Shown here: in pieces, positions 14,971-61,309 of the stretch | Layout of the letters: every line of letters starts with the position of its first letter | Numbering within the stretch: the stretch's first letter is position 1 | Program-made: the position numbers and the translations under genes | Notes under the pieces: generated by a model | The model's input: only the letters and a program-made list of their open reading frames with translations | Database searches by the model: none | Told to the model about the DNA's origin: nothing | Source of the DNA: Torpedo marmorata | Taxonomy: Eukaryota | Assembly (NCBI GenBank): GCA_977017645.1 | Contig: OZ360219.1 | Span: forward strand, 160,146,001-160,210,000 | DNA: 64,000 nucleotides | Direction of reading: 5' to 3'

Positions 14971-15162
14971 TTTAAATACAAGATCCAACACAACACTGTA
15001 TTCTATCTAACACTGGGATATATAGTCCAGTGTTAATTATGGGATGTTCTTTTTTCTTACTTTTCTATTACTTCATTCTATTTGAGGAGAAAATATGTAA
15101 TCAATGGTATAGGAGGGATGCGTCGGCGGATCTGACGGATAGAGAATGTTTAAAATTTAATT

Positions 15163-18100
15163 ATGGCTGATTCTAGAAGTATAAATTTTGTAAGTATTAA
15201 TGTTAATGGGCTTAATAATCCAATTAAGAGGAAAAAAACTTTAGCACATATCAAAAAATTAAAAGTAGATATAGCTTTTTTACAGGAAACACATTTGATT
15301 GATAAAGAACATCAAAAATTAAAGAGAGAATGGGTAGGACATGTAGTAGCTTCATCTTTTAATTCTAAAGCGAGAGGAGTAGCGATTTTAATCAGTAAAA
15401 AATTACCATTTAAAATACAATCAGTAGTGACGGATATAGCTGGTAGATATGTTTTAGTGCATTGTCAAATTTATTCAGAAATATGGACTCTTTTAAATTT
15501 ATATATTACAAACCCAGAGGATGAACAATTTATTCAAGATACTTTTTTACATTTATCTGAGGCTAAGGAAAATATTTTAATTGGAGGAGATTTTAATTGT
15601 TGTCTTAATGCAAATATGGATAAAACATCTAGAACATCTGTTAGACCTAAGATAGTTAAAAAAATTATTAATTTAATGGATGATTTAAAATTAGTAGATA
15701 TTTGGAGAAAGTTAAACCCTAGAGAAAAAGATTATTCATTTTATTCATTTCGACATAATTCATTCTCAAGGATTGATTTATTCTTAATATCTTCACAAAT
15801 TCAAGATAGAATAACTCAAATTTCTTATAAAGCAAGAATAATTTCGGACCATTCACCTTTATTAATGACATGTATAATTCCAGAGAAAGAAAAAACTGTA
15901 TATAACTGGAGATTAGACTCTTCTTTATTAAATAGAAAAGATTTTTGTGAATATATAAGAAAAGAAATTCAGGAATTTTTAAGAATTAATAATAATTCAG
16001 TTGAAGATAAGTTTATAATTTGGGAATCTTTAAAAGCATATTTAAGAGGATTGATAATAAGCTTCTCGGCAAAAATTAGAAAAGATTATGTGAAAGAAGA
16101 AGAAAAACTGGAGGGAGAAATTGAAGTTATGGAAAAGGATTTTCAAAGAAATAAAACAATTTCTAAGAGACAATGTTTAATTGGGAAAAAATTACATTAT
16201 AATATATTACAAACTCGAAAAATAGAAAAATTAATTGGTAGAACAAAGCAAAGATATTATGAATTGGGAGAAAGAGCACATAAAGTTTTAGCATGGCAAT
16301 TAAAGAAAGAACAAGTTTCTAAAACTATAAATGCTATAAAGAAAAGTTCTGGAGAAATAACTTATAAACCTCAAGAAATAAATAATTCATTTAAAGAGTA
16401 TTATCAAAATTTATATACTTCGCAAATGAATCAAGATGTTGTAAAAATTGATGATTTTTTAGCTAAAATTACATTGCCCAAATTAAATAGTTTTAATAGA
16501 GATTCATTAGATTTACCAATTACAATGAGAGAAGTAGGTGAAGCTTTATCATCATTGAATAGTGGTAAATCTCCCGGTGATGATGGATTTCCGGCAGAGT
16601 TTTATAAGAAGTTTAAAGATGTATTGATACCTATATATATGGAAGTATTAACTCAAATAAAGGAAACTCATTCATTACCGAAAACATTTTTAAATGCTAT
16701 TATCACAGTTATACCAAAGAAAGATAGAGATGTATTAAAAACAGAATCGTATAGGCCTATATCATTGTTAAATGTAGATTATAAATTAATGGCAAAAATC
16801 TTGACAAATAGACTAGCTAAGTTTTTACCATCTTTAATACATCCAGATCAAGCAGGATTTATTAAAAATAGATATTCAAAGGATAATATAGCAAGATTAA
16901 TAAGTTTAATTAATTTACAAAAAAAGAAACAGGATTTGCCGTTAGTGATAGCATTAGATGCAGAAAAAGCATTTGATAGAGTAGAATGGAAGTTTTTATT
17001 TAAAGTTTTAGAGAAATATGGATTTGGAAATACGTTTATAAACTGGATTAAGACTATATATAAGGAACCTACAGCTAGAGTAATTACAAATGGTCAAATA
17101 TCATCTAAATTCTCTTTGACGCGGTCAACAAGACAAGGATGTCCATTGTCACCTGCCTTATTTGTATTGGCAATAGAACCGTTGGCGGAAATGATTAGGA
17201 AAGATATCAATATAAATGGGATAAAAGTAGGTGTAGAAGAGCATAAAATTAGTTTGTTTGCAGATGATGTATTAATATATATGACAAAATCTATTGAATC
17301 ACTTCAACAATTAGATAAAATATTGAGGGATTATGGTGAAATATCTGGATATAAAATTAATTCGGATAAAAGTGAGATAATGGCTTTATCTCAAGGAGAT
17401 TATACTAAATGTAAAGAAGTTACAAAATTTAAATGGACTAAAGAAGCTATTAAATATTTGGGAGTTAAAGTGGATACAAAGTTAGAAAATTTATATAAAT
17501 TAAATTACATACCTTTATTTCAGAAAATAAAGAAGGATTTGGATAATTGGAAAGATTTACCCATAACTTTAATGGGAAGAGTGAATTGTATTAAAATGAA
17601 TATTTTTCCAAAAGTTCAATATCTTTTTCAATCTATACCTTTTGGTATTCCTCAAAAAATTTTTAAAGATTTAAAAATTATTATTAGAAAGTTTTTATGG
17701 AAAGGTAAATTGGCAAGAGTAAGTATGGATAAATTAACTTGGGAATACGAAATGGGAGGATTACAACTCCCTAATTTTCAATATTATTATAAGGCAGCAC
17801 AATTAAAATTTATAAATGAATTATTTGATTTAACTAAAAATACGGCTTGGATTAATATAGAATTGAGTAATATAGGAGAAAGAAATAAGGAAGATATTAT
17901 TTATAAATGGAATTCTAAATTATTATTGATTAAAAAGAAAAAGTCACCGATTATTAAACATCTATTGGAAATTTGGAATCAATTAGATAATGAAATAGGA
18001 CGAAAAGGATCAATTTCTTTAAATATGCCATTATATCAGAATTTATTATTACCATTTTCTATTGATAATCAATTTTTAAAATTATGGTATCAAAAAGGAA

Positions 18101-18948
18101 TTAAGAAGATTAAAGATTGTTTTGAGGCAGGAAGATTTGTTACTTTTTCTAGATTGAAAGAAAAATTTGGAATAATGGATAATACAGTTTTGGCTTATTA
18201 TCAAGTTAAAGGATTTTTAGTTGAGAAATTAGGGAATCAATTAATATCCCCTAGACAAGATGGGTTAGAGTTATTAATTACTAATGGAAATGTTAACAAA
18301 TTTATATCGCAAATGTATAAATTACTTCAGAAAAAAATGTTTAAAGTAGGACTACATAAATCTAGATTAAATTGGGAATCAGATCTAAACACTAGTATAG
18401 ATGAACAACACTGGAAAGAATTATGTAAACTGAGTATGACTAAGATTATTAATGTTAGATATAGATTAGTACAATATAATTTTTTTCATCAATTATATAT
18501 AACACCTAAAAAATTAAAGAAATTCAATTCGGCATTGTCAGATATGTGTTTTAGATGTAAAGATGAAATAGGTTCTTTTGTACATTGTACATGGTTGTGT
18601 TTGAAAATTAAAAATTTTTGGTCTAAAGTTAAGGAATTTTTAGATAGAATTCTTAATATTACGATTCCAATGGACCCTATGATATTTCTGTTTGGAGATA
18701 TTAAAAAAATCAGTATTAGAAATAGATTGAATATGTACCAAATAGAATTTTTACGAATTGTGTTAGCAATTTCAAAAAAATGTATTGCTATTACTTGGAA
18801 ATCAGATTTAGATTTAAATTTGGATAGATTACATGCAGAGTTACGCTCGTGTATACCATTGGAAAAAGTTACGTATAATTTACGAGACAAATATCATTTC
18901 TTTCTGAAAATTTGGAGCCCATACATGAGAATTATGGGTATGAATTAA
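15163..18948 (+). CDS. L1 ORF2p (APE endonuclease, reverse transcriptase, Cys-rich domain), uninterrupted 1261 aa
   Basis: INVNGLN, LQETH, GGDFN, SRIDL, SDHSP; YRPISLLNVDYK, QGCPLSP, LFADD; CFRC...HCTWLC. Confidence 0.95.
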   Translation: MADSRSINFVSINVNGLNNPIKRKKTLAHIKKLKVDIAFLQETHLIDKEHQKLKREWVGHVVASSFNSKARGVAILISKKLPFKIQSVVTDIAGRYVLVHCQIYSEIWTLLNLYITNPEDEQFIQDTFLHLSEAKENILIGGDFNCCLNANMDKTSRTSVRPKIVKKIINLMDDLKLVDIWRKLNPREKDYSFYSFRHNSFSRIDLFLISSQIQDRITQISYKARIISDHSPLLMTCIIPEKEKTVYNWRLDSSLLNRKDFCEYIRKEIQEFLRINNNSVEDKFIIWESLKAYLRGLIISFSAKIRKDYVKEEEKLEGEIEVMEKDFQRNKTISKRQCLIGKKLHYNILQTRKIEKLIGRTKQRYYELGERAHKVLAWQLKKEQVSKTINAIKKSSGEITYKPQEINNSFKEYYQNLYTSQMNQDVVKIDDFLAKITLPKLNSFNRDSLDLPITMREVGEALSSLNSGKSPGDDGFPAEFYKKFKDVLIPIYMEVLTQIKETHSLPKTFLNAIITVIPKKDRDVLKTESYRPISLLNVDYKLMAKILTNRLAKFLPSLIHPDQAGFIKNRYSKDNIARLISLINLQKKKQDLPLVIALDAEKAFDRVEWKFLFKVLEKYGFGNTFINWIKTIYKEPTARVITNGQISSKFSLTRSTRQGCPLSPALFVLAIEPLAEMIRKDININGIKVGVEEHKISLFADDVLIYMTKSIESLQQLDKILRDYGEISGYKINSDKSEIMALSQGDYTKCKEVTKFKWTKEAIKYLGVKVDTKLENLYKLNYIPLFQKIKKDLDNWKDLPITLMGRVNCIKMNIFPKVQYLFQSIPFGIPQKIFKDLKIIIRKFLWKGKLARVSMDKLTWEYEMGGLQLPNFQYYYKAAQLKFINELFDLTKNTAWINIELSNIGERNKEDIIYKWNSKLLLIKKKKSPIIKHLLEIWNQLDNEIGRKGSISLNMPLYQNLLLPFSIDNQFLKLWYQKGIKKIKDCFEAGRFVTFSRLKEKFGIMDNTVLAYYQVKGFLVEKLGNQLISPRQDGLELLITNGNVNKFISQMYKLLQKKMFKVGLHKSRLNWESDLNTSIDEQHWKELCKLSMTKIINVRYRLVQYNFFHQLYITPKKLKKFNSALSDMCFRCKDEIGSFVHCTWLCLKIKNFWSKVKEFLDRILNITIPMDPMIFLFGDIKKISIRNRLNMYQIEFLRIVLAISKKCIAITWKSDLDLNLDRLHAELRSCIPLEKVTYNLRDKYHFFLKIWSPYMRIMGMN

Positions 18949-19075
18949 TTCTCTAGAAGTTAGTACCGCTGACAAAGTAACCTCCAATATATAAGTAGAG
19001 TTAGCTTGAAATAGTTTTTCTCCTCATACTAACACTAATTTTCTTTCTTAACTTTATTATTCAACCTTTTTCTTT

Positions 19076-19757
19076 TGTAAGAGCCGTAGGCTCATTGACT
19101 TACCGTTGTTGCGGCGCTCCGATGTCTCGTTGGGCCTTGGAGCGCTCGCGTAGTTCGGTAGGCCGTCCTCGGAGCGCTCCTAGGCCACGTCGGGCCATTG
19201 AGCGCTCGCGTTGTTCACTGGGCCGTCCTCTGAGCGCTCCGAGGCCACGTCGGGCCTTGGAGCGCTTGCGTTGTTCTGTGGGCCGTCGTCGGCCCGTTCT
19301 TTGATATGCGCATGCGCGGGAGTGCCGACGGGCGCATGCGCAGTATAGAGTGACGTCATAGTGCGCGTGGGAGGCTGGGAATTGTAGTATGCGCGTTGGA
19401 GCATGCGCAGAAGCATTGGAGAGAGAGAACAAAGAAAGGATAGAGATGTATAGGGGGTGAGTCTGGTCTCCACATCTTTATTGACCGTTTTATACCGTTT
19501 TATAACTTTTAACATCATCTACAGTGTTTCATATCGTTTTGGAATTGTTTAAAGAATAATTTAAAGGAACTTATCATACATCGTTTACAAGAACTGTTTA
19601 TATTAAAGTCATTGAAGATTACTGCAAGACATGTGTGAAAATAAAGGTTTTTGAACATATTGGACTTTGTCAGTAAATTAAATAAAACGCGTCAAAAGCA
19701 AGAACCACACTTAGCCTCCAGGTGACTATTGGTGGAGCGAAGTCACCGTTACTTATA
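19076..19757 (+). repeat. 5' LTR of BEL copy 1 (TGTAAG...CTTATA)
   Basis: Identical by eye to 24577-25258; the spurious ORFs translated from both LTRs are identical. Confidence 0.92.
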
Positions 19758-20203
19758 GTCAATAAAGGGCTGGCTGTTTGGAACAGAAGTTTGAAAGAAA
19801 GAAGATAGAAAAAACTCTCTGTGCTTTGGACTGATATAAATTGGTGGCCATTTTGGAGATGCATCGAGTTGGGGGCAGTTTGTAATCTACATCCATCTGC
19901 CATGAATAACAGCCAGAGAGTGATTTAAAGCTTCAAATCTTATAGAAAAGTGTCCTATAAATACGTTGGAGAAACTATTTTTGGAAAATCAGTGATATTA
20001 GTGACGGATGTTGTGGTTGAAACTCGTTTGTGGATTGCAGCACATTACAGTCATTTGAAGTGGTAGGCATAAGTCTGTGGACTCCTTCTGTGTATCTTTA
20101 GCAAGTAAGAACACAGATTGGAATTGCTGCCGCTGGTCCATTGGGGACTGTTGTTTGACTAGTGTTGTGTATGCTTGAAGGAAAGAGGAACAAGACGAGT
20201 AAA

Positions 20204-23200
20204 ATGGCCGCAGCAGCCACTGATACAGCAGCTACTGATTTATCAGCAGCTGACGCAGCAACCGCTGATGTTGCTGTTGAGGACCAACGTATTGAAGACA
20301 TGAAGGTTGCGGATATTAAAGAAGAATTGAAGCGACTGAATAAGGACATAAGTGGAAATAAAAAGGTTCTTATTGAAAGATTGAAGCTGGCAAAGGATGA
20401 AGAGGCAGCTTCATTAGTTGAACAAGAAGATAACTTGGAAATGGCTGAAATTGTGTCAACAAATGATGAACAATTTGAATTGGATAAAGAGGTAAGTATG
20501 AAGACAACATATGAACTGCAGGACGAAATACAAGCAAGTGACAGTGTCTCAAATGCTGAAAGCAGGAGAAGCAAAAGAAGTTCTGGTTCAAGCTCCAGAG
20601 TTTCTCGTACTTCAAGTTCTGCATCGTCACGTACAAAGGTTGATGTTAAATTGGCCGCTCTTCTTGCACAACAAAAAACGCTTAAGGATAAATTTATATT
20701 AGAACAAGAGGAGGAGCAGCTAAGACAAAATGAGGAGCAGCTAAAGGAGCAGCTAAGACAAAATGAGAAGCAGCTAAAGGAGCAGCTAAGACAAAAGGAG
20801 GAGCAGCTAAGACGAAAGGAGGAGCAGTTAAAGGAGCAGCTAAAGGAGCAGCTAAGACAAAAGGAGGAGCAGCTAAGACGAAAGGAGGAGCAGTTAAAGG
20901 AGCAGCTAAAGGAGCAGCTAAGACAAGAGGAGGAGCAGCTAAGACAAAATGAGGAGCAGCTAAAGGAGCAGCTAAGACAAAATGAGAAGCAGCTAAAGGA
21001 GCAGCTAAGACAAGAGAAGGAGCAGCTAAAGCAGAGAAAAGAACTGCAGGAGCTGGAAGCAAACATTGCTATTGCCAAGGCAGAAAAGAAAGCAATAGAA
21101 GGTTCAATGGTATCTGGTGTTAGCAGTAAATCATCTAAATTGTCTGATGATAAAAGGTCATATTTAAAAAAGGAGTCACAGGAAAAGAAACCAACCAAAA
21201 GGATAGATATTTTAGAACCAAGGATACAAAACTTACATATACAAAGACAAACCTTTCAAGAGCATATTGGTATCGAGTCACATGTACCAATAATAACATC
21301 TGAAAGCAAAGCTGCGGATTGGGTACGGTCGAACGAAGCAGCTTCTTTGTTATATGAGCCAAGCATCAGAAATATGGAAGAAACTACACCAGTAAGGTTT
21401 CCAGATACATTGCATACAACAAGAGACAGTGAACAGAGTAATGTATTGAAATCCAAGGAAAGACAAAATGAAATTGCTGCGTCATTGTTTCAGTTACAGT
21501 CTCTCTCTTCTTTACCCAAGAAAGAGATACAAACTTTTGATGGTGATCCACTTCAATATCAATCATTTATGAGATCTTTCAAACGCAATATTGAAGATAA
21601 ATGCCAAGATCGTGATGAATGTCTTTATTATTTGGAAATGTTTACAAAGGGACATCCAAAGGAACTGGTTAAAAGTTGTAATCAAATGTCTTCAGGAAGA
21701 GGATTAGATAAAGCTAAGGATTTATTGGAACAATATTTTGGCAACAAACATCGAATTGCTTTAGCTTATATGGATAAAGCTCTTAAATGGACATCAATAA
21801 AACAAAATGATGTAAAGGCTTTGCAAGAATATACTTTGTTTTTAAGAGGATGTTGTAATGCTATGGAAGAAATTGATAATATTCGTGAACTTGAAGTGCA
21901 TAGTAATATGAGAATCATCTTAGAAAAATTACCTTACAAGTTATGGGATAGATGGAGAGATTTGGCTTGTAATTTACAAGTAGATTACGGTCGAAAAACT
22001 ACCTTAAAGGATTTAGTAAATTTTCTTGAACGACGGGTGTACGTTGAAACAGATCCACTATATGGAAATGCCAGAGATAATTCAATGGGCAAAGATGTAA
22101 TGAAGTCTAACACACAGTCTAGTCCGAAAGTGAAAAGGAGTACATTTGCTACTAATGTGCAAGTTATAAGTAAAGAAAATGACAAAGTAAATAAGGAAAA
22201 GGAAAGTTTGCCTAGTGAAAAGAGTTGTTTGTTCTGTAAAGGTGGACATGCTTTGGAAATGTGTTTACAATTGGAAAAGAAGGAACATAAGGAAAAGATC
22301 GCTTTCTTAAAGGAAAATGGAATATGTTTTAGCTGTCTGTGTAAAGGGCACATCAGTAAAAACTGCGAGAAGCGAATTAATTGTAAAATATGCAATTTGA
22401 AACATCCTAGAATTTTGCATATCCATAACAGAAACAAGGAATTGGAAAAGGAGCAAACAGAAACAAAGGAAACAACAGAAAATAATGTTATAACCTCGGT
22501 TCAGACAAGTGGTCTTACTGGGGCCGGGGTGAATAACTGCAAACTTTCAATAGTGCCTGTACAAGTTAAGGCCAAGAAAGGAGATGCAATAGTAAAAACA
22601 TATGCATTTCTAGACCCAGGTAGCACTGCATCTTTTTGCACGGAAGGACTAATGAATAAACTTAATATTCAAGGAAGAAAATCAAGAATTATGTTAAAAA
22701 CCATGGGACAAGAAAAGGTTGTTGAAACTAACATTGTTTCAGGCTTAGAGGTTGCTGGATTGGATGACAAAAAATTTTGTGATCTTCCAAGTGTATATAC
22801 TCAGAAGACTATGCCTGTGAACGAAGGAAATATTCCTCATCAAAGTGATATCCATCATTTAGCTTATCTGTGGAAGGTTTATTTACCTGAAATTAATTCT
22901 GAAATAGAAATGCTGATTGGTTCAGATGTGCCAAAGGTTTTGGTACCAAAAGAAGTAATAGAAAGTAAAAGGAATGGACCTTACGCTATTAGAACCATAC
23001 TTGGTTGGGCAATCAATGGACCAATGGAAAGAAATAATGATATTGCTCAGGAACAGGTAGCGATAAATGTTAATAAAATTTCAGTTGAGAAATTTGAAGA
23101 GTTAAAAGAAGAGCAAAAAACCGTGAATAAGAAAATCATTTATGAAGAAAAGAAAACAGATCAATGTGAAAATAAATCAGTGGTATTTAAAACAACATTG

Positions 23201-24160
23201 AAGAAATTAATTTCGTCAGAAATGGATGAAAGTGAAGTATTAGAAGATGTTGCAAATAATACTGTTGATCATTCATGTGTAATTGAATCAAATACAGGAA
23301 TAAAACAAGTGACTGAAAACAAATCTGAATGTAGATTTTGTAGTTCAGAGATTACAACAGACAAAGCTAATGAAGAAATATTACAATGTGATGTAAAACT
23401 GGAAAACACAGAAAATTGTGCTGATGAAATAAAGAATAATGATTCAGAGAACAAAATGTTGAAAGGAGAATTGGAAATATTAAATAAGCAAGAAAACAGT
23501 AAACAGAAAGATTTAATTGTAAGTAAAACTCGCAAAGTTAGAAAGCGGAAGAAAAGAATAACTGCTGAAGAAATGAATACAGTTATTGAGGAAAGAGATT
23601 CAGCATTATCAAAATGTAAAAGGTTGGAGGAAGAGATTAATGTTTTGAAAGAGATCAAGTTATTGGTTAATAACACAAAACAGTTGACTTTTAAAACCAA
23701 TCAAGAATGTAAATTGAATGTTCAACAATTAACAATGCAGAAAGAATGTGAAATTGCATTGCAGAAATGTAACAAGCAAGACGAAGAAATTAAAAAATTT
23801 CAAGTATGCCGCAACAGGATTGACAATGGAACTATCAATGTATCGCATGATATTTTGACTTCAGATCAAATTATTAATTTCTCGGAAGGAGCTGAGACTG
23901 AATTGAAAGTTGCGAAATTGGATTTAGAATTGCAGGAAAGAGCAATAGAAACCAGAGTGGTTAAACAAACCTGTTTAAAATCGAAAGAATCAGATAAATA
24001 TTCAAATTCTAATTCTAAGAGTTTAAATTCTTCACATGAGAAGTGGAGTACTGAAGAAAGGAAAAAAGTGAAACGACGTGCTGAAGAAGTGCCTTGTGTT
24101 AAATTCAAAAGAAAAACTGTATCTATTTTGTCTGAGGAGGATTTGAGGTTTACTGGTTGA
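20204..24160 (+). CDS. Chimeric Gag-protease polyprotein: SAP domain, coiled-coil repeats, Pao-type capsid, three Zn knuckles, aspartic protease, MIPOL1-like coiled-coil tail
   Basis: Open frame 20162-24160; probable start aaaATGG at 20204 (upstream ATG at 20171). MKVADIKEELKR...SGNKKVLIERL (SAP); FDGDPLQY (Gag); CLFC..H..C, CFSC..H..C, CKIC..H...H; FLDPGS (protease); RITAEEM..IEERD.ALSKCKRLE (MIPOL1-like). No YxDD RT motif. Confidence 0.85.
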   Translation: MAAAATDTAATDLSAADAATADVAVEDQRIEDMKVADIKEELKRLNKDISGNKKVLIERLKLAKDEEAASLVEQEDNLEMAEIVSTNDEQFELDKEVSMKTTYELQDEIQASDSVSNAESRRSKRSSGSSSRVSRTSSSASSRTKVDVKLAALLAQQKTLKDKFILEQEEEQLRQNEEQLKEQLRQNEKQLKEQLRQKEEQLRRKEEQLKEQLKEQLRQKEEQLRRKEEQLKEQLKEQLRQEEEQLRQNEEQLKEQLRQNEKQLKEQLRQEKEQLKQRKELQELEANIAIAKAEKKAIEGSMVSGVSSKSSKLSDDKRSYLKKESQEKKPTKRIDILEPRIQNLHIQRQTFQEHIGIESHVPIITSESKAADWVRSNEAASLLYEPSIRNMEETTPVRFPDTLHTTRDSEQSNVLKSKERQNEIAASLFQLQSLSSLPKKEIQTFDGDPLQYQSFMRSFKRNIEDKCQDRDECLYYLEMFTKGHPKELVKSCNQMSSGRGLDKAKDLLEQYFGNKHRIALAYMDKALKWTSIKQNDVKALQEYTLFLRGCCNAMEEIDNIRELEVHSNMRIILEKLPYKLWDRWRDLACNLQVDYGRKTTLKDLVNFLERRVYVETDPLYGNARDNSMGKDVMKSNTQSSPKVKRSTFATNVQVISKENDKVNKEKESLPSEKSCLFCKGGHALEMCLQLEKKEHKEKIAFLKENGICFSCLCKGHISKNCEKRINCKICNLKHPRILHIHNRNKELEKEQTETKETTENNVITSVQTSGLTGAGVNNCKLSIVPVQVKAKKGDAIVKTYAFLDPGSTASFCTEGLMNKLNIQGRKSRIMLKTMGQEKVVETNIVSGLEVAGLDDKKFCDLPSVYTQKTMPVNEGNIPHQSDIHHLAYLWKVYLPEINSEIEMLIGSDVPKVLVPKEVIESKRNGPYAIRTILGWAINGPMERNNDIAQEQVAINVNKISVEKFEELKEEQKTVNKKIIYEEKKTDQCENKSVVFKTTLKKLISSEMDESEVLEDVANNTVDHSCVIESNTGIKQVTENKSECRFCSSEITTDKANEEILQCDVKLENTENCADEIKNNDSENKMLKGELEILNKQENSKQKDLIVSKTRKVRKRKKRITAEEMNTVIEERDSALSKCKRLEEEINVLKEIKLLVNNTKQLTFKTNQECKLNVQQLTMQKECEIALQKCNKQDEEIKKFQVCRNRIDNGTINVSHDILTSDQIINFSEGAETELKVAKLDLELQERAIETRVVKQTCLKSKESDKYSNSNSKSLNSSHEKWSTEERKKVKRRAEEVPCVKFKRKTVSILSEEDLRFTG

Positions 24161-24186
24161 CGTTTGACTCGGATTGTGAAGATAAA

Positions 24187-24379
24187 AGAACTTTAAAGAG
24201 ACATTGTGATTGTTATGGATGGTTCAACTTCAAGAAATTCCTGGTTACTTGGAAAAGATTATTGAGACTTTTCAAGACAAAGAGGACTTGTGCGTCAAGT
24301 GCGAATTAAAGCTAAGACTGGTTTTCTAAGCAGACCTATTAACCAGGTCTGCCTTTTGTTGGAGACAGAGGAACTTTGA
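24187..24379 (+). pseudogene. Remnant of the BEL integrase C-terminal domain (DUF5641-like)
   Basis: DIVIVMDGSTSRNSWLLG.IIETFQDK.GLVRQVRIKAKTGFLSRPINQVCLLLE, with frameshifts, after the ORF stop. Confidence 0.75.
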
Positions 24380-24576
24380 TAAATGTAAACTGACTTTATT
24401 TGTTGTTGTACATTTCACAGGTTACAGACTTTTGTTGAATCAGAGTTATGGTAAACTCTAGATTTATGAAGAAGGAAGAAAGAAGATTTGTATTGTTTTG
24501 AATGTTATGGTTATTATTATTTATAGTGTAATTATTATTCAAGACATTACGTCTAATTATAATAATTAGGGGCCGG

Positions 24577-25258
24577 TGTAAGAGCCGTAGGCTCATTGAC
24601 TTACCGTTGTTGCGGCGCTCCGATGTCTCGTTGGGCCTTGGAGCGCTCGCGTAGTTCGGTAGGCCGTCCTCGGAGCGCTCCTAGGCCACGTCGGGCCATT
24701 GAGCGCTCGCGTTGTTCACTGGGCCGTCCTCTGAGCGCTCCGAGGCCACGTCGGGCCTTGGAGCGCTTGCGTTGTTCTGTGGGCCGTCGTCGGCCCGTTC
24801 TTTGATATGCGCATGCGCGGGAGTGCCGACGGGCGCATGCGCAGTATAGAGTGACGTCATAGTGCGCGTGGGAGGCTGGGAATTGTAGTATGCGCGTTGG
24901 AGCATGCGCAGAAGCATTGGAGAGAGAGAACAAAGAAAGGATAGAGATGTATAGGGGGTGAGTCTGGTCTCCACATCTTTATTGACCGTTTTATACCGTT
25001 TTATAACTTTTAACATCATCTACAGTGTTTCATATCGTTTTGGAATTGTTTAAAGAATAATTTAAAGGAACTTATCATACATCGTTTACAAGAACTGTTT
25101 ATATTAAAGTCATTGAAGATTACTGCAAGACATGTGTGAAAATAAAGGTTTTTGAACATATTGGACTTTGTCAGTAAATTAAATAAAACGCGTCAAAAGC
25201 AAGAACCACACTTAGCCTCCAGGTGACTATTGGTGGAGCGAAGTCACCGTTACTTATA
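24577..25258 (+). repeat. 3' LTR of BEL copy 1
   Basis: Direct repeat of 19076-19757 (offset 5501), followed by TSD TCTTT. Confidence 0.92.
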
Positions 25259-25704
25259 TCTTTCCTTTTAATTAACATTTTTATACTCTATTTTCTTTTT
25301 TTATTAGATAGCGTGGGAGGGTTGGGGAGGGGAGGGTGGGAAGGGGGGGTAGTAAATATATCACATGTATTTTCAATAATATATTATTTTTTTGATATAT
25401 GTATTTTGTGATTTTAAAAATTAAATAAAATTATAAAAAAAAAAAAAACAAAAAAAAAAAACCACTGTATTCTATCACATCTTACAAATATAAATTAGTT
25501 CATAACCAAAAAACTGTGAGCTCAGGGGTTTGTTGCAACTTACCTTCATTCACTTTACAAGTCACTCAGCTATATGACAATCTTCAAATATATCATCATT
25601 TCGCACATACTTTTTAATCATATGCTTGCCTTTCATAAATCACTGTTGAGGCATCTCTAGTCTTGAGTCTCTGTTGGGCACGGTCAGCAAAAAAATACTT
25701 TGTA

Positions 25705-44600: not shown

Positions 44601-46244
44601 AATTAAGTAATTTATATAAATTAAATTATTTACCTTTACAGTATTTATTAATATTAAAAAGGATTTAGAGAGTTGGAAAGATTTACCTATAACTTTAATA
44701 GGAAGGATAAATTGTATCAAAATGAATATTTTTCCAAGAATTCAATATATTTTTAAATCAATTCCTTATGAAATTCCTCAAAAATTCTTTAAGGATTTAA
44801 ATTTAGTTATTAGGAAATTTTTGTGGAAAGGAAAGTTGGCTTGAGTACGTATAGAGAAGTTAACTTTGAATTATGAATTGGGAGGTTTACAACTTCCCAA
44901 TTTTCAAAATTATTATAAGGCAGCTCAATTAAAATGTATTAATGAAATGTATGATTGAGAAAAATCTTCTGCTTGGATTAGAATAGAATTAAATAATATA
45001 GGAGAGGATTCGAAAGAAGCAGTTATTTATAAATGGAATTCTAAATTACTATTACGGGGAGGTAAAAATTCTCCTATTTTAAAACATTTGTTAGAAATAT
45101 GGAATAAAGTTGATCGGGAGATAGGAGGGGAAAGGGTTAATTTCTCATAAAATGCCTTTATATCAAAATAAACTTATCCCATTTACTATTGATAATCAAT
45201 TGTTTAAAATTTGGTTTCAAAAAGGGATTAAAAGAGTAAATGATTGTTTTGAAGCTAGTAAATTTATTACTTTCCAAAGAATGAAAGAGAAGTTCAATGT
45301 ACCAAATAATACACTTTTTGCTTATTATCAAATAAGAACATTTTTAGTTGAAAAGTTGGATCATAGTTCAATTTTACCAAGACAAAATGAATTGGAATCA
45401 TTAGTTACTAATGGGGGTATAAATAAATTTATTTCTCAAATGTATAGATTGCTACAGGAAAAAATGCCTAAGCCAGGAATTCATAAATCAAGATTAAAAT
45501 GGGAATCAGATTTGAATGAAATAATAGATGAAGAACATTGGAAAGAAATATGTAAACAAAGTATGACGAAAATTATTAATGTTAGATATAGGTTAGTGCA
45601 ATACAACTTTTTGCATCAATTATATTTAACGCCCTGCTTGGATTAGTATAGAATTAAATAATATAGGAGAAGATTTGAAAGAGGAAGTTATTTATAAATG
45701 GAATTCTAAATTATTATTAACAGCAGGGAAAAACTCTCCTATTTTTTAAACATTTGTTAGAAATATGGAATAGAGTGGATAGGGAGATAGGAGGGAAAGG
45801 ATTAATTTCTCGAAAAATGCCTTTATATCAAAATAATCTTATTCCATTTACTATTGATAATCAATTATTTAAAATTTGGTTCCAAAAGGGAATTAAGATA
45901 ATAAATGATTGTTTTGAAGCTAGTAAATTTATTACTTTTCAAAGAATGAAAGAAAAGTTTAATATATTAAATAATACACTTTTTGCTTATTATCAAATTA
46001 GAGCATTTTTAGTTGAAAGGTTGGGTTATAGTTTGATTTTACCAAGACAAAGTGAACTGGAATTATTAGTTACTAATGGAGGTATAAATAAATTTATTTC
46101 TCAAATGTATAGATTGTTACAGAGAAAAATGCCTAAATTAGGAATTCATAAATCAAGATTAAAATGGGAATCAGATCTGAATGTAATAATAGATGAAGAA
46201 CATTGGAAAGAACTATGTAAACAAAGTATGACGAAGATTATTAA

Positions 46245-46757
46245 ATTACAGGAAGGATACAAACAGAATAGAGAGAGTGCAGAGGAGATTTACAAGAATG
46301 TTGCCTGGGTTTCTGGGTTTGAGTTATTGGGAAAGGTTGAACAGGCTGGGACTTTATTCCCTGGAGCATAGAAGGTTGAGGGGTGATTTGATAGAGGTAT
46401 TTAAAATTATGAAAGGGAAAGATAGAGTCAATGTGGACAGGATTTTTCCATTGAGAGAGGGGAAGATTCAAACAAGAGGGCATGGATTGAGATTGAAGGG
46501 GGGAAAGTTTAGAGGAAACATGAGGGGGAATTTCTTCACTCAGAGGGTGGTAGGAGGGTGGAACGAGCTTCCGGCCGAAGTGGTAGATGCAGGTTCAATT
46601 TTAATTTTTAAGGAAAAGTTGGATAGGTATATGGACGAGAGAGGTGTGGAGGGTTATGGGCCGGGTGCAGGTCAGTGGGACAAGGTGGGAGAATGTGTTC
46701 GGCATGGACTAGAAGGGCCAAACTGGCCTGTTTCTGTGCTGTAAATGTTATATGGTT
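46245..46757 (+). mobile_element. CR1 3' fragment inserted in L1 ORF2
   Basis: QRRFTRMLPG...LEHRRLRGDLIEVFKI...TRGHGLRL...FFTQRVV. Confidence 0.88.
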
Positions 46758-49526: not shown

Positions 49527-50585
49527 AAAAGTAAACACGAAAATCTGTAGACACCGTGGATGAAGTAAAAAACACAAAAGCTGGAGAACTCAGCAAGTCA
49601 AACAGTGTCTTTTATGTAGCAAAGGTAGAAATACATAACCGACGTTTCAGGCTTGAGCCCTTCTTCAAAGTATGAGAAAATGCCGGCAGACGTCCGAACA
49701 AAGGAGTGAGGGGGGAAGGGGGGTGGGAAAGGCAGGAGATGATAGGTGGAGAAAGGAGGGAGGGGACAGCAGCAAAGAGGGGGAGGAGGGATGGCTGGTT
49801 GGGTGGAAAAAAACAGGAAGTACAGGTGAGGGGGAGGGGAAGGGAACAACAAGCAGGTTTAGTGGAAAGCAGAAAAGTCAATGTTAATTCCATCTGGCTG
49901 GAGAGTGCCGAGACGGAATATGAGATGTTGTTCCTCCAATTTGCGGGTAGTCTGGGTGGGATAGTACATGAGGCCATGGACAGACATGTGAGTGTGGGAG
50001 TGTGACCCAGAATTGAAATGGTTGGCTACTGGGAGGTCGCTGTTGTTGCGGACGGAGAGGAGGTGCTCAGCAAAGCGGTCTCCCAATCTACGACCGGTCT
50101 CTCCGATGTATAGAAAGCCACAAAGGGAGCAGTAGATAAGTCCTCTGGATGTACAAGTGAAGTGTAGTTTCACTTGAAAGGCCTGTTTGGGGCCCTGGAC
50201 CGTGGTGAGGGGGGAGGTGTGGGCGCAGGTGTTGCACCTCCTGCGGGCACAGGGGAAGGTTCCGTCCGGGGGTGCGATGGGTGGGGAGGGACGAGTGCAC
50301 GAGTGAATCACGGAGGGAGCGGTCCCTACGGAAGGCCGAGAGGGGAGGAGAATGAAAAATGTGTCTGGTGGTGGGATCCTGCAGCAAGTGCCGGAAATTC
50401 CGGCGGATAATGTGTTGGATGCGGAGGCTGGTGGGGTGGTAGGTGAGGATGAGGGGTATTCTATGTTTGTTGCGTCTGGGAGCAGAGGGGGCCAGGGCAG
50501 ATGAGCGGGAAATGGAGGAGATGCGGGTGAGGGCTGAGTTGATGGTGGTGGAGGGGAAGCCACGTTTGTGGAAAAAGGCAGACAT
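49527..50585 (-). mobile_element. Penelope-like retroelement 3' portion (GIY-YIG endonuclease plus pseudo-LTR)
   Basis: FPCARRRCNTC...LIYCSLCGFLYIGETGRRLGDRFAEH...VANHFN...EQHLIFRLGTLQPDGIN; candidate TSD catttc(c)tctggaaatat at ~49503-49520 and ~50583-50599. Confidence 0.88.
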
Positions 50586-50829
50586 TTCTCTGGAAATATC
50601 CTCTCCCAAAGTCTCTCATCCCAATCCTGTACAGCCCACTTCCACCTCCTTCCAATTAGAACTGTTTCTGCTCCCTTTCTTGAGAGTCCTATTAGAAATG
50701 TCTTGGCAGACCAACTGTTTTGGCTGCTCTTGCCTCTCCCAGAACTTATCCAGTCCAATCCTTATTCGATCCTTCCTCCCTTAATCCGATCCCTTCCCAT
50801 ATACAGATTATCCAATCCCTTCATAGTTT

Positions 50830-54012: not shown

Positions 54013-55501
54013 TTGGCGTCTCCAATCAATCAAGTTGAAAATTATGAGGTTGGCTTATTTTCTGCACTTTTTCTTGACTGAATCAATGTCATGGAGAAAC
54101 TGAGCGCACATTCTCCCCACTCAACTGCAGTCTTTTTAGTTTGTATGAAAACCATTTGCATTAATTGAAGATTAAGACAATTTATATGCTGCAAGTAGAA
54201 TGATTTGAACTCACTCACTATCATACTTTGAGACTTATAACTAAATGAATAGAATTACAGATCATTTCCCATTTCCTTCATTTATTACATTAAAATAAAG
54301 TTACAAGAAATTGTGAATGTTGCAACAGAACATGATTTTTTTTTTTTAAATTTTAGACATACAGCACGGTAACAGGCCCTTCCAGCCCCCGAGCCCATGC
54401 CGCTCAAAAACATCAATTAACCTACAACCATACGTTTTTGAAAGGTGGGAAGAAACCGAAGCACCCGGAGGAAACCCATGTAGGTCATGGGGTGTGTAAG
54501 AGCCGTAGGCTCATTAACTTACCGTTGTTGCGGCGCTCCGATGTCTTGTCGGGTTGTGGAGCGCTTGCGTTGTTATGTAGGCCGTCCTCGGCCCGTTCTG
54601 TGCTCTGCGCATGCGCTGGAGTGCCGACGGGCGCATGCGCAGTGTGGAGTGACGTCATTGTGCGCGGTGTAGTTTGGGAAATGTAGTATGCGCGGTGGGG
54701 GGTGCGCAGTGATATAGGAGCGACGGGGCATGCGCGAATTAGAGAATAGGAGAAGGAATAAGATGTAGGAGGGTGAGTGAGATCTCCATATCTTTATTGA
54801 CCGTTTTATATCGTTTTATAACGTCTTATACATCGTTTTGGAATTGTTTAAGGAATCATTTAAAGAAACTCATCATACATCGTTTTCAAGAACTGTTTAT
54901 ATTGAAGTCATTGAAGATTACTGCAAGTCACGTGTGTAAATAAAGATTTTGAACATATTGGACTTTGTTGGTAAATTAATTAAAACGCGTCAAAGACAAG
55001 TATCTCACTTAGCCTCCAGGTGACTATTGTTGGATCGAAGTCACCATATTATAGTCAATAAAGTGCTGGCTGTTTGGAACAGAAAATTGAAGGAAAGAAG
55101 ATAGAATAATCTCTCTGTGCTTTGGACTGATATTTAAAATGGCGGCCATCTTGGAGATGCCTCGAGTTGAGGGCAGTTTGTAATCCACATCCATCTGCCA
55201 TGAATAACAGCCAGAGAGGGATTTAAAGTTTCAAATCTTATAGAAAAGTGTCCTATAAATACGTTGGAGAAACTATTTTTGGAAAATTAGTGATATTATT
55301 GACGGATGTTGTGGTTGAAACTCGTTTGTGGATTGCAGCACATTACAGTCATTTGAAGTGGTAGGCATAAGTCTGTGGACTCCTTCTGTGTATCTTTAGC
55401 AAGTAAGAACACAGATTGGAATTGCTGCCGCTGGTCCATTGGGGACTGTTGTTTGGCAAGTGTTGTGTATGCTTGAAGGAAAGAGGAACAAGACGAGTAA
55501 A

Positions 55502-58500
55502 ATGGCCGCAGCAGCCTCTGATACAGCAGCTACTGAGGTATCAGCAGCTGACGCAGCAACCGTTGATGTTGCTGTTGAGGACCAATGTATTGAAGACATG
55601 AAGGTTTCGGATATTAAAGAAGAATTGAAGCGACTGAAAAAGGATATAAGTGGAAATAAAAAGGTTCTTATCGAAAGATTGAAGCAGGCAAAGGATGAAG
55701 AGGCAGCTTCATTAAATGAACAAGAAGATAACTTGGAAATGGCAGAAATTGTGTCACCAAATGATGAAGAAATTGAAGTGGTTGAAAATGCAAAGGATAT
55801 ACAATTTGAATTGGATAAAGAGGTAAGTATGAAGACAGCATATGAACTGCAGGACGAAATACAAGCAAGTGACAGTGTCTCAAATGCTGTAAGCAGGAGA
55901 AGCAAAAGAAGTTCTGGTTCAAGCTCCAGAGTTTCTCGTACTTCAAGTTCTGCATCGTCACGTACAAAGGTTGATATTAAATTGGCCGCTCTTCTTGCAC
56001 AACAAAAAACGCTTAAGGATAAATTTATTTTAGAACAAGAGGAGGAGCAGCTGAGACAAAATGAGAAGCAGCTAAAGGAGCAGCTAAGACAAAATGAGAA
56101 GCAGCTAAAGGAGCAGCTAAGACAAAAGGAGGAGCAGCTAAAGGAGCAGCTAAGACAAGAGAAGGAGCAGCTAAGGCAGAGAAAAGAACAGCAGGAGCTG
56201 GAAGCAAACATTGCTATTGCCAAGGCAGAAAAGAAAGCAATAAAAGGCTCAATGGTATCTGGTGCTAGAAGTAAATTATCTAAATTGTCTGATAATAAAA
56301 GGTCATATTTAAAAAAGGTGTCACAGGAAAAGAAACCAACCAAAAGGATAGATATTTTAGAACCAAGGATACAAAACTTACATATACAAGGACAAACCTT
56401 TCAAGAGCATATTGGTATCGAGTCACATGTACCAATGGTGACATCTGAAAGTAAAGCTGCGGCTTGGGTTCGGTCGAACGAAGCAGCTTCTTTGTTATAT
56501 GAGTCAAGCATCAGAAATATGGAAGAAACTACACCAGTGAGGTTTCCAGATACATTGCATGCAAGAAGAGACGGTGAACAGAGCAATGTATTGTCATCCA
56601 AGGAAAGACAAAATGAAACTGCTGCATCATTGTTTCAGTTACAGTCTCTCTCTTCTTTACCCAAGAAAGAGATACAAACTTTTGATGGTGATCCACTTCA
56701 ATATCAATCATTTATGAGATATTTCAAACGCAATTTTGAAGATAAATGTCAAGATCGTGATGAATGTCTTTATTATTTGGAAATGTTCACAAAGGGACAT
56801 CCAAAAGAATTGGTAAAGAGTTGTAAACAAATGTCTTCAAAAAGAGGATTAGACAAAGCTAAGGCTTTATTGGAACAATATTTTGGCAACAAGCATCGAA
56901 TTGCTTTAGCTTATATGGATAAAGCTCTTAAATGGACATCAATAAAACAAAATGATGTAAAGGCTCTGCAAGAATATACTTTGTTTTTAAGAGGATGTTG
57001 TAATGCTATGGAAGAAATCGATAATATTCGTGAGCTTGAAGTGCATAGTAATATGCGAATCATCTTAGAAAAATTACCTTACAAGTTATGGGATAGATGG
57101 AGAGATTTGGCTTGTGATTTACAAGTAGATTACGGTCGAAAAATTACCTTAAAGGATTTGGTAAATTTTCTTGAACGACGGGTGTACGTTGAAACAGATC
57201 CACTATATGGAAATGCCAGAGATAATTCAATGGGCAAAGATGTAAGGAAGTCTAACACACAGTCTAGTCCGAAAGTGAAAAGGAGTACTTTTGCTACTAA
57301 TGTGCAAGTTATAAGTAAAGAAAAGGACAAAGTAAATAAGGAAAAGGAAAGTTTGCCTAATGAAAAGAGTTGTTTGTTCTGTAAAGGTGGACATGCTTTG
57401 GAAATGTGTTTACGATTGGAAAAGAAGGATCATAAGGAAAAGATCGCTTTCTTAAAGGAAAATGGAATATGTTTTAGCTGTCTGTGTAAAGGACACATCA
57501 GTAAAAACTGCGAGAAGCGAATTAATTGTAACATATGCAATTTGAAACATCCTAGAATTTTGCATATCCATAACAGAAACAAGGAATTGGAAAAGGAGCA
57601 AACAGAAACAAAGGAAACAACAGAAAATAATGTTATAACCTCGGTTCAGACAAGTGGTCTTACTGGGGCCGGTGTGGATAACTGCAAACTTTCAATAGTG
57701 CCTGTACAAGTCAAGGCCAAGAAAGGGGATGTAATAGTAAAAACATATGCATTTTTAGACCCAGGCAGCACTGCATCTTTTTGCACGGAGGGACTAATGA
57801 ATAAACTTAATATTCAAGGAAGAAGATCAAGAATTATGTTAAAAACCATGGGACAAGAAAGGGTTGTTGAAACTAACATTGTTTCAGGCTTAGAGGTTGG
57901 TGGATTATATGACAAAAAATTTTGTGATCTTCCAAGTGTATATACTCAGAAGACTATGCCTGTGAATGAAGGAAATATTCCTCATCAAAGGGATATCCAT
58001 CATTTAGCTTATCTGTGGAAGGTTTATTTACCTGAAATTAATTCTGAGATAGAAATGCTGATTGGTTCAGATGTGCCAAAGGTTTTGGTACCAAAAGAAG
58101 TAATAGAGAGTAAAAGGAATGGACCTTATGCTGTTAAAACCATGCTTGGTTGGACAATCAATGGACCACTGGAAAGAAATAATGATATTGCTCAGGAACA
58201 GTCAGCGATAAATATTAATAGAATTTCAGTTGTGAAAGTTGAAGAGTTAAGCGAAGAGCAAAATACTGTGAATAAGAAAATCACTTTTGAGGAAAAGAAA
58301 ACTGATCAATGTGAAAATAAATCAAAGGTATTTAAAACAACATTGAAGGAATTATTTTCATCAAAAATGGATGAAAGTGAGGTATTAGAAGATGTTGCAA
58401 ATAATACTATTGATCATTCATGTGTAATTGAATCAAATACAGGAATAAAACAAGTGACTGAAAACAAATCTGAATGTAGATTTTGTAGTTCAGAGATTAC

Positions 58501-59325
58501 AACAGACAAAGCTAATGAATATTGCAATGTGATGTAAAACTGGAAAACACAGAAAATTGTGCTGATGGAATAAAGAATAATGTGAATGATAATTTAATGC
58601 AATTGAATTCAGAGAACAAAATGTTGAAAGGGGAATAGGAAATATTAGATAATCAAGAAAACAGTAAACAGAAAGATTTAATTGTAAGTAAAACTCGCAA
58701 AGTCAGAAAGCGGAAGAAAAGAATAACTGCTGAAGAAATGAATACAGTTATTGAGGAAAGAGATTCAGCATTATCAAAATGTAAAAGGTTGGAGGAAGAG
58801 ATTAATGTTTTGAAAGAGAACAAGTTATTGGTTAATAACACAAAACAGTTGACTTTAAAAACCAATCAAGAATGTAAATTGAATGTTCAACAATTAACAA
58901 TGCAGAAAGAATGTGATATTGCATTGCAGAAATGTAACAAACAAGATGAAGAAATTAAAAAATTTCAAGTTTGTCGCAACAGGATTGACAATGGAAATAT
59001 CAATGTATCACATGATATTTTGACTTCAGATCAAATTATTAATTTCTCGGAAAGAACTGAGACTGAATTGAAAGTTGCAAAATTGGATTTAGAATTGCAG
59101 GAAAGAGCCATAGAAACCAGAGTGGTTAAACAGACCTGTTTAAAATCGAAAGGATCAGATAAATATTCAAATTCTAATTCTAAGAGTTTAAATTCTTCAC
59201 ATGAGAAGTGGAATACTGAAGAAAGGAATAAAGTGAAACGACATGCTGAAGAAGTGCCTTGTGTTAAATTCAAAAGAAAAACTGTATCTATTTTGTTTGA
59301 GGAAGATTTGAGGTTTACTGGTTGA
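55502..59325 (+). pseudogene. SAP-Gag-protease-MIPOL1-like ORF of BEL copy 2, disrupted in the C-terminal part
   Basis: Open to 58537; 4-bp deletion near 58520 relative to copy 1 and a TAG at ~58636; the C-terminal frame 58738-59325 matches copy 1. Confidence 0.85.
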
Positions 59326-59354
59326 CGTTTTAACTCAGATTATGGAGATAAAAG

Positions 59355-59545
59355 AGCTTTAAAGAGACATTGTGATTATTATGAATAATTCAACTTCAAG
59401 AAACTCCTGGTTACTTGGAAAAATTATTGAGACTTTTCAAGACAAAAGAGGACTTGTGCGTCAAGTGCGAATTAAAGCTAAGACTGGTTTTCTAAACAGA
59501 CCTATTAACAAGGTCTGTCTTTTGTTGGAGACAGAGGAACTTTGA
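59355..59545 (+). pseudogene. BEL integrase C-terminal (DUF5641-like) remnant, copy 2
   Basis: DIVIIMNNSTSRNSWLLGKIIETFQDKRGLVRQVRIKAKTGFLNRPINKVCLLLETEEL*. Confidence 0.75.
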
Positions 59546-61309
59546 TAAATATAAACTGACTTTATTTGTTGTTGTATACTTCACAGGTTACAGACTTTTG
59601 TTGATTCAGAGTTATGGTAAACTCTGGGTTTATGAAGAAGGAAGAAAGAAGATTTGTGTTGTTTGAATTTTATGGTTATTGTTATTTATAATTTATAGTG
59701 TAATTATTATTCAAGACATTGTGTCTAATTATAATAATTAGGCGCCGGTGTAAGAGCCGTAGGCTCATTAACTTACCGTTGTTGCGGCGCTCCGATGTCT
59801 TGTCGGGTTGTGGAGCGCTCGCGTTGTTATGTAGGCCGTCCACAGCCCGTTCTGTGCTCTGCGCATGCGCTGGAGTGCCGACGGGCGCATGCGCAGTGTG
59901 GAGTGACGTCATTGTGCGCGGTGTAGTTTGGGAAATGTAGTATGCGCGGTGGGGGGTGCGCAGTGATATAGGAGCGACGGGGCATGCGCGAATTAGAGAA
60001 TAGGAGAAGGAATAAGATGTAGGAGGGTGAGTGAGATCGCCATATCTTTATTGACCGTTTTATATCGTTTTATAACGTCTTATACATCGTTTTGGAATTG
60101 TTTAAGGAATCATTTAAAGAAACTCATCATACATCGTTTTCAAGAACTGTTTATATTGAAGTCATTGAAGATTACTGCAAGTCACGTGTGTAAATAAAGA
60201 TTTTGAACATATTGGACTTTGTTGGTAAATTAATTAAAACGCGTCAAAGACAAGTATCTCACTTAGCCTCCAGGTGACTATTGTTGGATCGAAGTCACCA
60301 TAGGGAGAACGTACAAGCTCCTTACAGACAGCGCCGGATTCTAACCCAGGTCGCTGGCACTGTAATAGTGTTGCACTAACCTGGTAACACTGAAAATGTC
60401 AATTTTTCTAAATTTTTACATTTGTTTCATGAAACTGTCACTACACCTAAAAAGAGTGAACAACTTTATACAAATTATTCTCATCATATCATCACCCAGT
60501 CACTACTGAACCAAAAGCTGAAAAGAAGACCAAATATGGTAATGAAATACTGTATGGGGTTCTTTGAAGTGCAGAAGACAACAACTTAAAACAAAAAGTA
60601 AAAGTATTTAACAAGTACAGTTAATTTTGTAAGAAGTTTGGTAGACTAAACAGCAAAGATAAGGGGAGAGTGCAGCCTTTGTTGAAGCTGAGGATGTTGG
60701 CAATCAAGAGACACATTTTAAGGTGCAGAACATCTACTATAATTTACAATTGGAGGTAACAACTGGAAGTTCTTGCACACATTATTCTGAATTTGCTGCC
60801 AGCTGTTAGGACTTCCATTAAAAACAAAACCACCTTTTTGAATAATTTTTCACAACTGCTTTTTGGAATTGGGAATATCAATTGCCAACACATTAGTATA
60901 CACAGCGCCCATGGTTTTGGACCAGGTAAAGTCTAACTTGTGGAATAGATTGCAGCTGACCCTTCTCTACCGGTTGTACTGCTAATCCATAATGCTGTTT
61001 TCTACTTGATTGATTGCTATCTGTTGGAGTTTGTGGTGCACCAGAGATTTGGAAAATCACTCTGGTCAAAAACCTCCAGATATTTTTAGATTCAAATTCA
61101 CTCCACTCCAAGCATTAAGCAACTGTATTAAAATGTTATTTGCTGGAAACAGAACACTCAAAGCTCGAGAAACAGAATGCATGAAGTAAAATAGCCGAGG
61201 GTGAAATAGTTATTTTCAAAATAGATTTAGTTTCAGAAATTATCAAATGACAATTCGTGTGCCTAAATGAAGAGTATATTTTTGAAAATAGTATGGCTTT
61301 ATTACTTAC

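Follow-up and report, generated by a model that had tools for sequence, protein, structure and literature searches.

A BEL retrotransposon of Torpedo marmorata carries in-frame spliced fragments of BRCA1, MIPOL1 and Elongin A in place of pol

The analyzed DNA, a stretch of 64,000 nucleotides from contig OZ360219.1 of the marbled ray Torpedo marmorata (genome size 6.2 Gb; hereafter the window), contains an LTR element in duplicate. The first of the two, copy 1 (19076-25258), is a non-autonomous BEL LTR retrotransposon. We consider it probable that its pol region was replaced by spliced fragments of the host genes BRCA1, MIPOL1 and Elongin A (ELOA), all in frame, that the MIPOL1 fragment likely passed through an RNA circle, and that the enzymes of a sister element likely copy the whole. 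The cargo is intronless, exon I of MIPOL1 is joined to exon C at splice sites in an arc that stays within exons C to I, a helper with near-identical LTRs and Gag is present in the genome, and the element has reached thousands of copies with its frame kept.

Anatomy of the element and its helper

The features of both copies are given in Table 1. Copy 1 is young, as its LTRs do not differ from each other and it is flanked by a 5-bp target-site duplication (TSD). When it was compared with BEL/Pao elements, paired LTRs and a 5-bp TSD were found, but the LTR ends were TG...TA rather than TG...CA. Three Cys/His knuckles are the rule in BEL/Pao Gag, and copy 1 has them (motifs at aa 675, 708 and 727), followed in the same frame by the protease motif (aa 804). 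In a Pfam scan DUF1759 scored below the cut-off in copy 2 and gave no match in copy 1.

Table 1. Positions of the features of the element in the window
Feature	Position	Strand	Remarks
Left target-site duplication TCTTT	19071..19075	+	right twin at 25259-25263
5' LTR, 682 nt, TG...TA	19076..19757	+	same sequence as 3' LTR
Single open frame, 1318 aa from ATG	20204..24160	+	SAP-Gag-protease-BRCA1-MIPOL1-ELOA; stop 24158-24160
BEL Gag and protease	20204..23116	+	SAP aa 30-61; three Cys/His knuckles aa 675-739; DPGS aa 804
BRCA1 fragment, spliced	23112..23516	+	two host exons; 71% nt identity to host gene on contig C61
MIPOL1 exons G (3' part), H and I	23509..23814	+	seam with BRCA1 is an 8-nt shared word, 23509-23516
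Back-splice junction	23814..23815	+	final nucleotide of host exon I next to the initial one of upstream exon C
MIPOL1 exon C (first 74 nt), 81-nt in-frame deletion, exon D (nt 24-90)	23815..23965	+	
Elongin A fragment, spliced	23959..24165	+	large exon, 111-nt in-frame deletion and following exons; holds the stop of the frame
Untranslated stub: BEL pol 3' end, 3' UTR, purine tract	24198..24576	+	adjoins 3' LTR; 95% to most autonomous copies
3' LTR	24577..25258	+	
Copy 2	54495..60302	+	BRCA1 58257-58681, MIPOL1 to 59124, ELOA to 59337

As the preliminary description had stated, the BEL frame stays open for about 350 codons past the protease (352 aa), and the Pfam scan of this part gave no match at all, RT and RNase H included. 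Over the whole frame of copy 1 no Pfam match to RT, RNase H or integrase was obtained, and Pao RNase H (PF05380) and DUF5641 were absent from the window element in the same type of scan. We therefore looked at copies with a complete frame. A genome search with Pao RNase H gave 150 scored matches, 11 of them in frames of more than 2000 aa, and eight of these were fetched. Their frames measured 2043-2134 aa and their LTR pairs were 97-100% identical; all eight shared the LTR, the gag-protease region and the tail with copy 1, mostly at 91-96%, and where the alignments with autonomous copies were long, the Gag-protease part of copy 1 was about 93-95% identical to them in nucleotides. Both helpers that were scanned contained RT, Pao RNase H, integrase and DUF5641. 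Since the window element lacks these domains and the helper has them, it is a non-autonomous derivative rather than an autonomous member, and it is likely, judging from these sequences, that it is copied by the enzymes of this intact sister element. Positions 23117-24197 of the window (1081 nt) replace about 3190 nt of the helper. The possibility that the cargo is a normal part of BEL polyproteins was ruled out, as none of the eight long-frame autonomous copies carried it, in agreement with the initial description.

Copy 2 was correctly said to carry the same insert. It has the layout of copy 1, including the cargo and the I/C junction (58979/58980), but its frame is broken twice, near 58520 by a frameshift and at 58637-58639 by a stop codon. 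Its LTRs showed 4 differences over about 550 nt, and no clean TSD was readable at its ends.

A few other features of the region were noted. Copy 1 sits in the 3' UTR of an L1-type element (15154-18948 and 25264-25460), upstream of its poly(A); ORF2 of this element is open (1264 aa). Positions 20679-21063 in Gag hold a variable 33/21/12-nt repeat, which codes for a Glu/Gln/Lys/Leu-rich, coiled-coil-like tract and differs in length among copies and helpers. The start of the LTR (19076-19300) consists of GC-rich repeats of about 60 nt, whose number varies between copies. Elsewhere in the window, we take the frame at 49859-50761 (- strand) to resemble a Penelope GIY-YIG end, and that at 46232-46744 (+ strand) presumably resembles a CR1/L2-type LINE end.

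Host origin of the cargo and the back-splice junction

The cargo had been described as a single MIPOL1-like insert of shuffled order. When the 352 aa past the protease were searched, all 11 matches among 1919 candidate proteins were named MIPOL1, the best being Pristis P0003 (E 5e-28), as predicted; a search of representative proteins gave 35 unnamed matches across query positions 33-135. P0003 itself had no match in a Pfam scan. In its alignment residues 262-290 were matched after residues 313-466, i.e., in inverted order. A genome search with Pristis MIPOL1 found the host locus on contig C40 and many dispersed older copies (77 scored candidates), in which MIPOL1 residues ~340-470 are joined directly to residues 210-300, while for the C-terminal 99 aa of MIPOL1 the host locus was the sole match in the genome. 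Mere coiled-coil similarity was ruled out, as the old copies are 90-96% identical in nucleotides to the host exons.

MIPOL1 accounts for 23509-23965 only, and the parts on either side belong to two other genes. The piece 5' of it is BRCA1 (6 matches among 295 candidates, all BRCA1, E 1e-50), spliced and in normal exon order, with up to four host exons in longer old copies. The piece 3' of it is Elongin A (PF06881, E 1e-14; PDB 8oev_M, E 9e-54; host gene on contig C41), represented by 4-5 host exons across copies; the residues LSEEDLRF, previously taken as BEL-like, are thus host sequence. For both pieces the nearest named proteins were from batoids, Narcine bancroftii first. MIPOL1 was indeed captured, but alongside two further host genes in this element and four in a sister subfamily.

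This sister subfamily was found among ten longer loci (L121-L130) chosen for an upstream ELOA match. They read Gag-protease, a 5' piece of ELOA, BRCA1, the MIPOL1 arc, a linker and a 3' piece of ELOA, and four of them, translated further, contained pieces of IARS1 and NDC80 (PDB E 2e-75 and 9e-8, respectively). Natural open frames run across the protease/ELOA/BRCA1/MIPOL1 seams in L121 and L122, across MIPOL1/ELOA in L122, and across ELOA/IARS1/NDC80 in L130. As BRCA1-MIPOL1 is flanked by ELOA at either end, the captures may have been nested. Raw counts of shared bases differed among the seams: 8 of 10 nt at one ELOA/BRCA1 seam and none at another, 6-8 nt at the young seams, and 2 nt at the old BRCA1/MIPOL1 seam. 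At the MIPOL1/ELOA seam of L121-L130 the linker consists of 17-20 extra nt outside the assigned donor pieces, possibly what is left of another RNA that was taken up.

The young cargo is 71-89% identical to the host. Host BRCA1 (G000:C61 near 25488540) lacks 9 nt that are present in the element (window 23234) and in Narcine BRCA1, so that the element appears to keep an older host state. In a dating against Narcine bancroftii the copies agreed with the host at the majority of the sites that differed, yet they shared only 0-2 derived residues with it.

The inverted order of MIPOL1 turned out not to be random, since the end of one exon is joined to the start of an upstream exon. Seven exons, labeled C to I, were identified within 330 kb of host-gene sequence (136, 106, 130, 34, 171, 108 and 95 nt), all flanked by AG..GT. 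They sum to 780 nt, or 260 codons, and the doubled circle contains no stop. All of 29 old loci (L032-L060) aligned in the order G, H, I, C, and most of them contained one 587-nt arc (G48-I95 joined to C1-E18) that was 90-96% identical to the host, some being shortened by later insertions or deletions. This arc crosses five exon junctions without introns; it is confined to exons C to I, is shorter than one turn of the circle (587 of 780 nt) and has no poly(A). The I/C 30-mer was found with 0-5 mismatches in 39/39 old loci (11 exact), which differed from the linear I/J and B/C joins by at least 9 mismatches. The exact junction 20-mer had 239 matches in the genome and the controls none. In copy 1 the junction aligns without gap, with 12 of 30 flanking bases changed.

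Exons G, H and I joined at splice sites to the upstream exons C, D and E are the characteristic trace of reverse transcription from a circular RNA, and we think it very probable, from the exon order, that the MIPOL1 fragment was reverse-transcribed from a back-spliced circle. The earlier idea that host mRNA had been transduced into the Gag-protease frame thus stands as far as RNA-mediated, spliced capture is concerned; the donor was most likely a circle and not a linear mRNA. An origin of the I/C join from linear RNA, by trans-splicing or exon repetition, by a genomic duplication of C-I since lost, or by a back-jump of RT in MIPOL1 mRNA, seems distinctly unlikely. An exon-repeat transcript would give an identical junction, which sequence alone cannot distinguish, the two linear borders at the junction have 3 nt in common, and other routes to non-colinear junctions are noted in the available text of PMC4897178. 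Against this, no duplicate of exons C to I was found in the 330 kb of the host gene, each exon occurring there once in the present-day sequence, and the arc stays within C-I over less than one turn. As for the back-jump, only 3 of 6854 in-frame backward jumps with 3-nt microhomology reached exon borders at both ends. A mouse circ-Mipol1, of possibly different exon content, has also been reported (PMC9888537). Contigs spanning the junction in sequencing runs had 15-25 differences from an old copy; they look like copies of the element and are uninformative on the circle, and no back-splice read with host alleles was found. The introns of the donor MIPOL1 gene itself (G000:C40:64320001-64650000) hold four cargo-bearing copies, three in the sense and one in the antisense orientation.

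The following series of events could account for the cargo. Host RNAs would have been packaged together in the particle, and RT would have switched templates, in rounds, onto Elongin A mRNA, BRCA1 mRNA and the 780-nt MIPOL1 circle, a process described for co-packaged host RNAs in animal LTR retrocopies (PMC5131818). On the circle, RT would have entered in exon G, crossed the back-splice and left in exon E. Words shared at several of the seams speak for switching, the short homology at the old BRCA1/MIPOL1 seam (only 2 nt) and the 17-20 nt of unplaced sequence at MIPOL1/ELOA against it. Spread would then have occurred in trans through the helper enzymes, and later recombination with helper RNA may have kept the backbone current while in-frame deletions eroded the cargo.

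Amplification, probable backbone renewal and selection on the frame

Exact-motif counts in the genome were 9,042 for the young junction, 16,351 for gag and 974 for helper RT, with 0 for all controls; by this measure copies with cargo outnumber the helper about tenfold. Forty young copies were taken from the first 47 listed on contig C1, leaving out five tandem copies, one already sampled and one neighbor. An LTR pair was present in 34 of them, mostly 93-100% identical, most had 5-bp TSDs, and 16/40 had an open Gag-protease-cargo frame. Of 20 gag matches not paired with a junction motif, 18 carried cargo, none carried pol and 2 were uninformative. Because the exact gag motif was present in only 25/40 young copies, we estimate the size of the family as likely 15,000-25,000 copies. 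The cargo was also present in sequencing runs of at least two further organisms; assembled contigs covered it in runs X1, X2 and X8 (the latter only guessed to be RNA) and thinly in X4, with none in X17. These data support the proposal that capture preceded amplification. Two arrangements may be mentioned: five cargo junction motifs lie in tandem at 4964-nt spacing in G000:C1:1498497-1518377, a tandem array of the element, and the old copy at L125 (G000:C31:187682001-187692000) contains a young cargo copy of its own family, inserted in the antisense orientation.

Among 21 copies, the identity of the protease to the helper was 76-80%, 86%, 90% and 95.5% as that of MIPOL1 to the host fell from 92-96% to 85%, 83% and 79%, the last values being those of the window copy. 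Copying of the cargo appears to have gone on without a break during a change of about 22% in the backbone. From a backbone close to today's helper next to a cargo that has aged, we infer repeated recombination with helper RNA.

The reading frame through the cargo is selected. Compared with the host or older copies, copy 1 has deletions of 24, 24, 120, 3, 81, 198, 3 and 111 nt, all eight multiples of three (expected by chance about once in 6500 for independent deletions), though the 198-nt site reads off-frame against L049 and L035, which have shifts of their own. Selection was further tested with 53 copies (54 minus one near-duplicate), 30 loci chosen for 100% identity being excluded. Indels common to 3 or more copies were 3 in frame and 0 shifting within the cargo, as compared with 7 and 30 for singletons (p 0.012) and with 2 and 18 for indels after the stop common to 3 or more copies (p 0.006). 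Of the stops in the cargo, 15 were singletons, 1 was a doubleton and 1, in the MIPOL1 part, was common to 3 or more copies; three frameshifts occurred in 2 copies each. The shared stop and the doubled frameshifts indicate that loss of the frame does not fully block copying, unless they reflect duplications or repeat mutations. Our preferred explanation is that copies may be favored when ribosomes traverse the cargo and come close to the 3' end, as they would on the RNA of the helper, through putative cis-packaging or RNA stability, and that the cargo would mainly be translated filler and not a functional domain of MIPOL1, BRCA1 or Elongin A. Mouse IAP 1-delta-1 (PMC6466679) would be an analogue of such selection in cis.

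Constraint on the amino acids was not robust. Over all sites, missense/synonymous counts were 97/51 for shared and 207/61 for singleton variants (ratio 0.56, p 0.011; p 0.014 in an earlier 41-copy set), a depletion that is unexpected for pure filler and so counts against our preferred explanation. Without CpG columns the counts were 87/38 and 180/52 (ratio 0.66, p 0.13), and the protease control lost its significance too. It is possible, though doubtful, that after the same capture the cargo polypeptide works for the element, for instance with the MIPOL1 coiled coil as an oligomerization module that substitutes for Pol in assembly or protease activation. The missense ratio was lowest in the MIPOL1 part (0.36, p 0.015, 41 copies; 0.48, p 0.048, 53 copies) but rose to 0.87 (p 0.84) without CpG columns. 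Between copies 1 and 2, dN/dS was 0.36 for the cargo, on par with 0.37 for gag-protease, while that of copy 1 to the host (0.59 [0.41-0.88], distance-corrected) overlapped the neutral simulation (0.76 [0.56-1.08], raw). Pieces are also still being lost, including 45 nt of MIPOL1 in a deletion common to 11 copies. The Gag-Pol fusion of mouse IAP 1-delta-1, reported as cis-acting in the text available to us (PMC6466679), would fit a working polypeptide. The analogy with oncogene capture by retroviruses drawn initially holds for the mechanism, template switching; a benefit from the MIPOL1 protein is doubtful, constraint being robust for the frame and not for the amino acids.

The excess over the helper could also arise if host-like cargo blunted piRNA or chromatin silencing, as silencing would then strike BRCA1 and Elongin A as well. 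Each of the five donor genes is conserved and has a housekeeping or cell-cycle role, which agrees with this idea, as does the tenfold excess itself, but shorter non-autonomous elements are commonly more numerous than their helpers anyway. At 71-89% identity to the host the young cargo is too diverged for much small-RNA cross-talk, and the model has no need of an open frame. The idea has been published for maize (bioRxiv 10.1101/777037), in a study whose accessible text reports no gain in copy number. We regard this explanation of the excess as very improbable.

Relation to known systems and significance

Each ingredient has a precedent in the published texts consulted, namely mouse circRFWD2, maize Bs1 and the conflict over silencing (10.1101/777037). 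The mouse circRFWD2 pseudogenes (33-42 copies, LTR-associated, by a mechanism called mysterious; Dong et al. 2016, PMC4897178) similarly have a non-colinear exon junction, exons of the circle only and multiple copies, in an LTR context (MMERVK10C-int is marked in the legend of Fig. S1). As far as that paper describes them they are pseudogenes, whereas the ray element has at least 9,042 copies, both LTRs, a helper, TSDs, a frame shared with Gag-protease and young insertions. In the animal LTR retrocopies of Tan et al. 2016 (PMC5131818) an internal ORF is likewise replaced by partial intronless mRNA, and there are multi-gene chimeras too; short words shared at the seams, a four-gene mouse chimera, a BEL case in mosquito and further rounds of copying are described. 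In the ray, 1081 nt stand for about 3190 nt between the LTRs, with BRCA1 over 4 exons and ELOA over 4-5. Unlike the present family, those cases are rare loci and not a dominant family, circular RNA goes unmentioned in the main text, and the text seen shows no selection on the frame at the family level. Maize Bs1, an LTR element with a hybrid frame of three host gene fragments, differs, as described in the parts available of PMC5131818 and PMC13317346, in its one to five copies, its one donor out of frame and its Copia-like, plant origin, while the ray element is a BEL with all donors in frame, thousands of copies and one donor back-spliced. Mouse IAP 1-delta-1 is also a non-autonomous deletion derivative whose fused frame has stayed open, works in cis and does better than its helper, according to the text available of PMC6466679, but its fusion is Gag-Pol, whereas the distal part of the ray element is host-derived. 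We found neither a paper on this family nor the combination and scale of the ray element in the literature searched, which was without subscription journals, Repbase/Dfam and the supplements of PMC5131818.

The route by which circular RNAs return to genomes, left open in the accessible text of the paper on circRNA pseudogenes (PMC4897178), would here be laid out whole: one can see where the putative circle was entered and left, the two LTRs with their TSDs, the intact helper, and copies in a dated series that begins near the host sequence and ends with young insertions, at a scale about two hundred times that of the mouse case. The MIPOL1 arc would be the fossil of an ancient circular RNA of cartilaginous fish. 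According to the most far-reaching version, a currently active vertebrate LTR retrotransposon family took up a circular RNA and up to four other host mRNAs by template switching, the chimera is translated, and the host-derived tail, with the MIPOL1 coiled coil at its core, functionally replaced Pol in what became the dominant lineage of some 15,000-25,000 copies. We consider this version unlikely; if true, the family would be a self-renewing exon-shuffling machine and would show how circular RNAs enter genomes. The family also amounts to a natural experiment, replicated thousands of times, on the reason for which non-autonomous elements preserve an open frame. Its sequences resembling BRCA1, MIPOL1 and Elongin A, which number in the thousands, could give rise to small RNAs and mislead the annotation of this genome.
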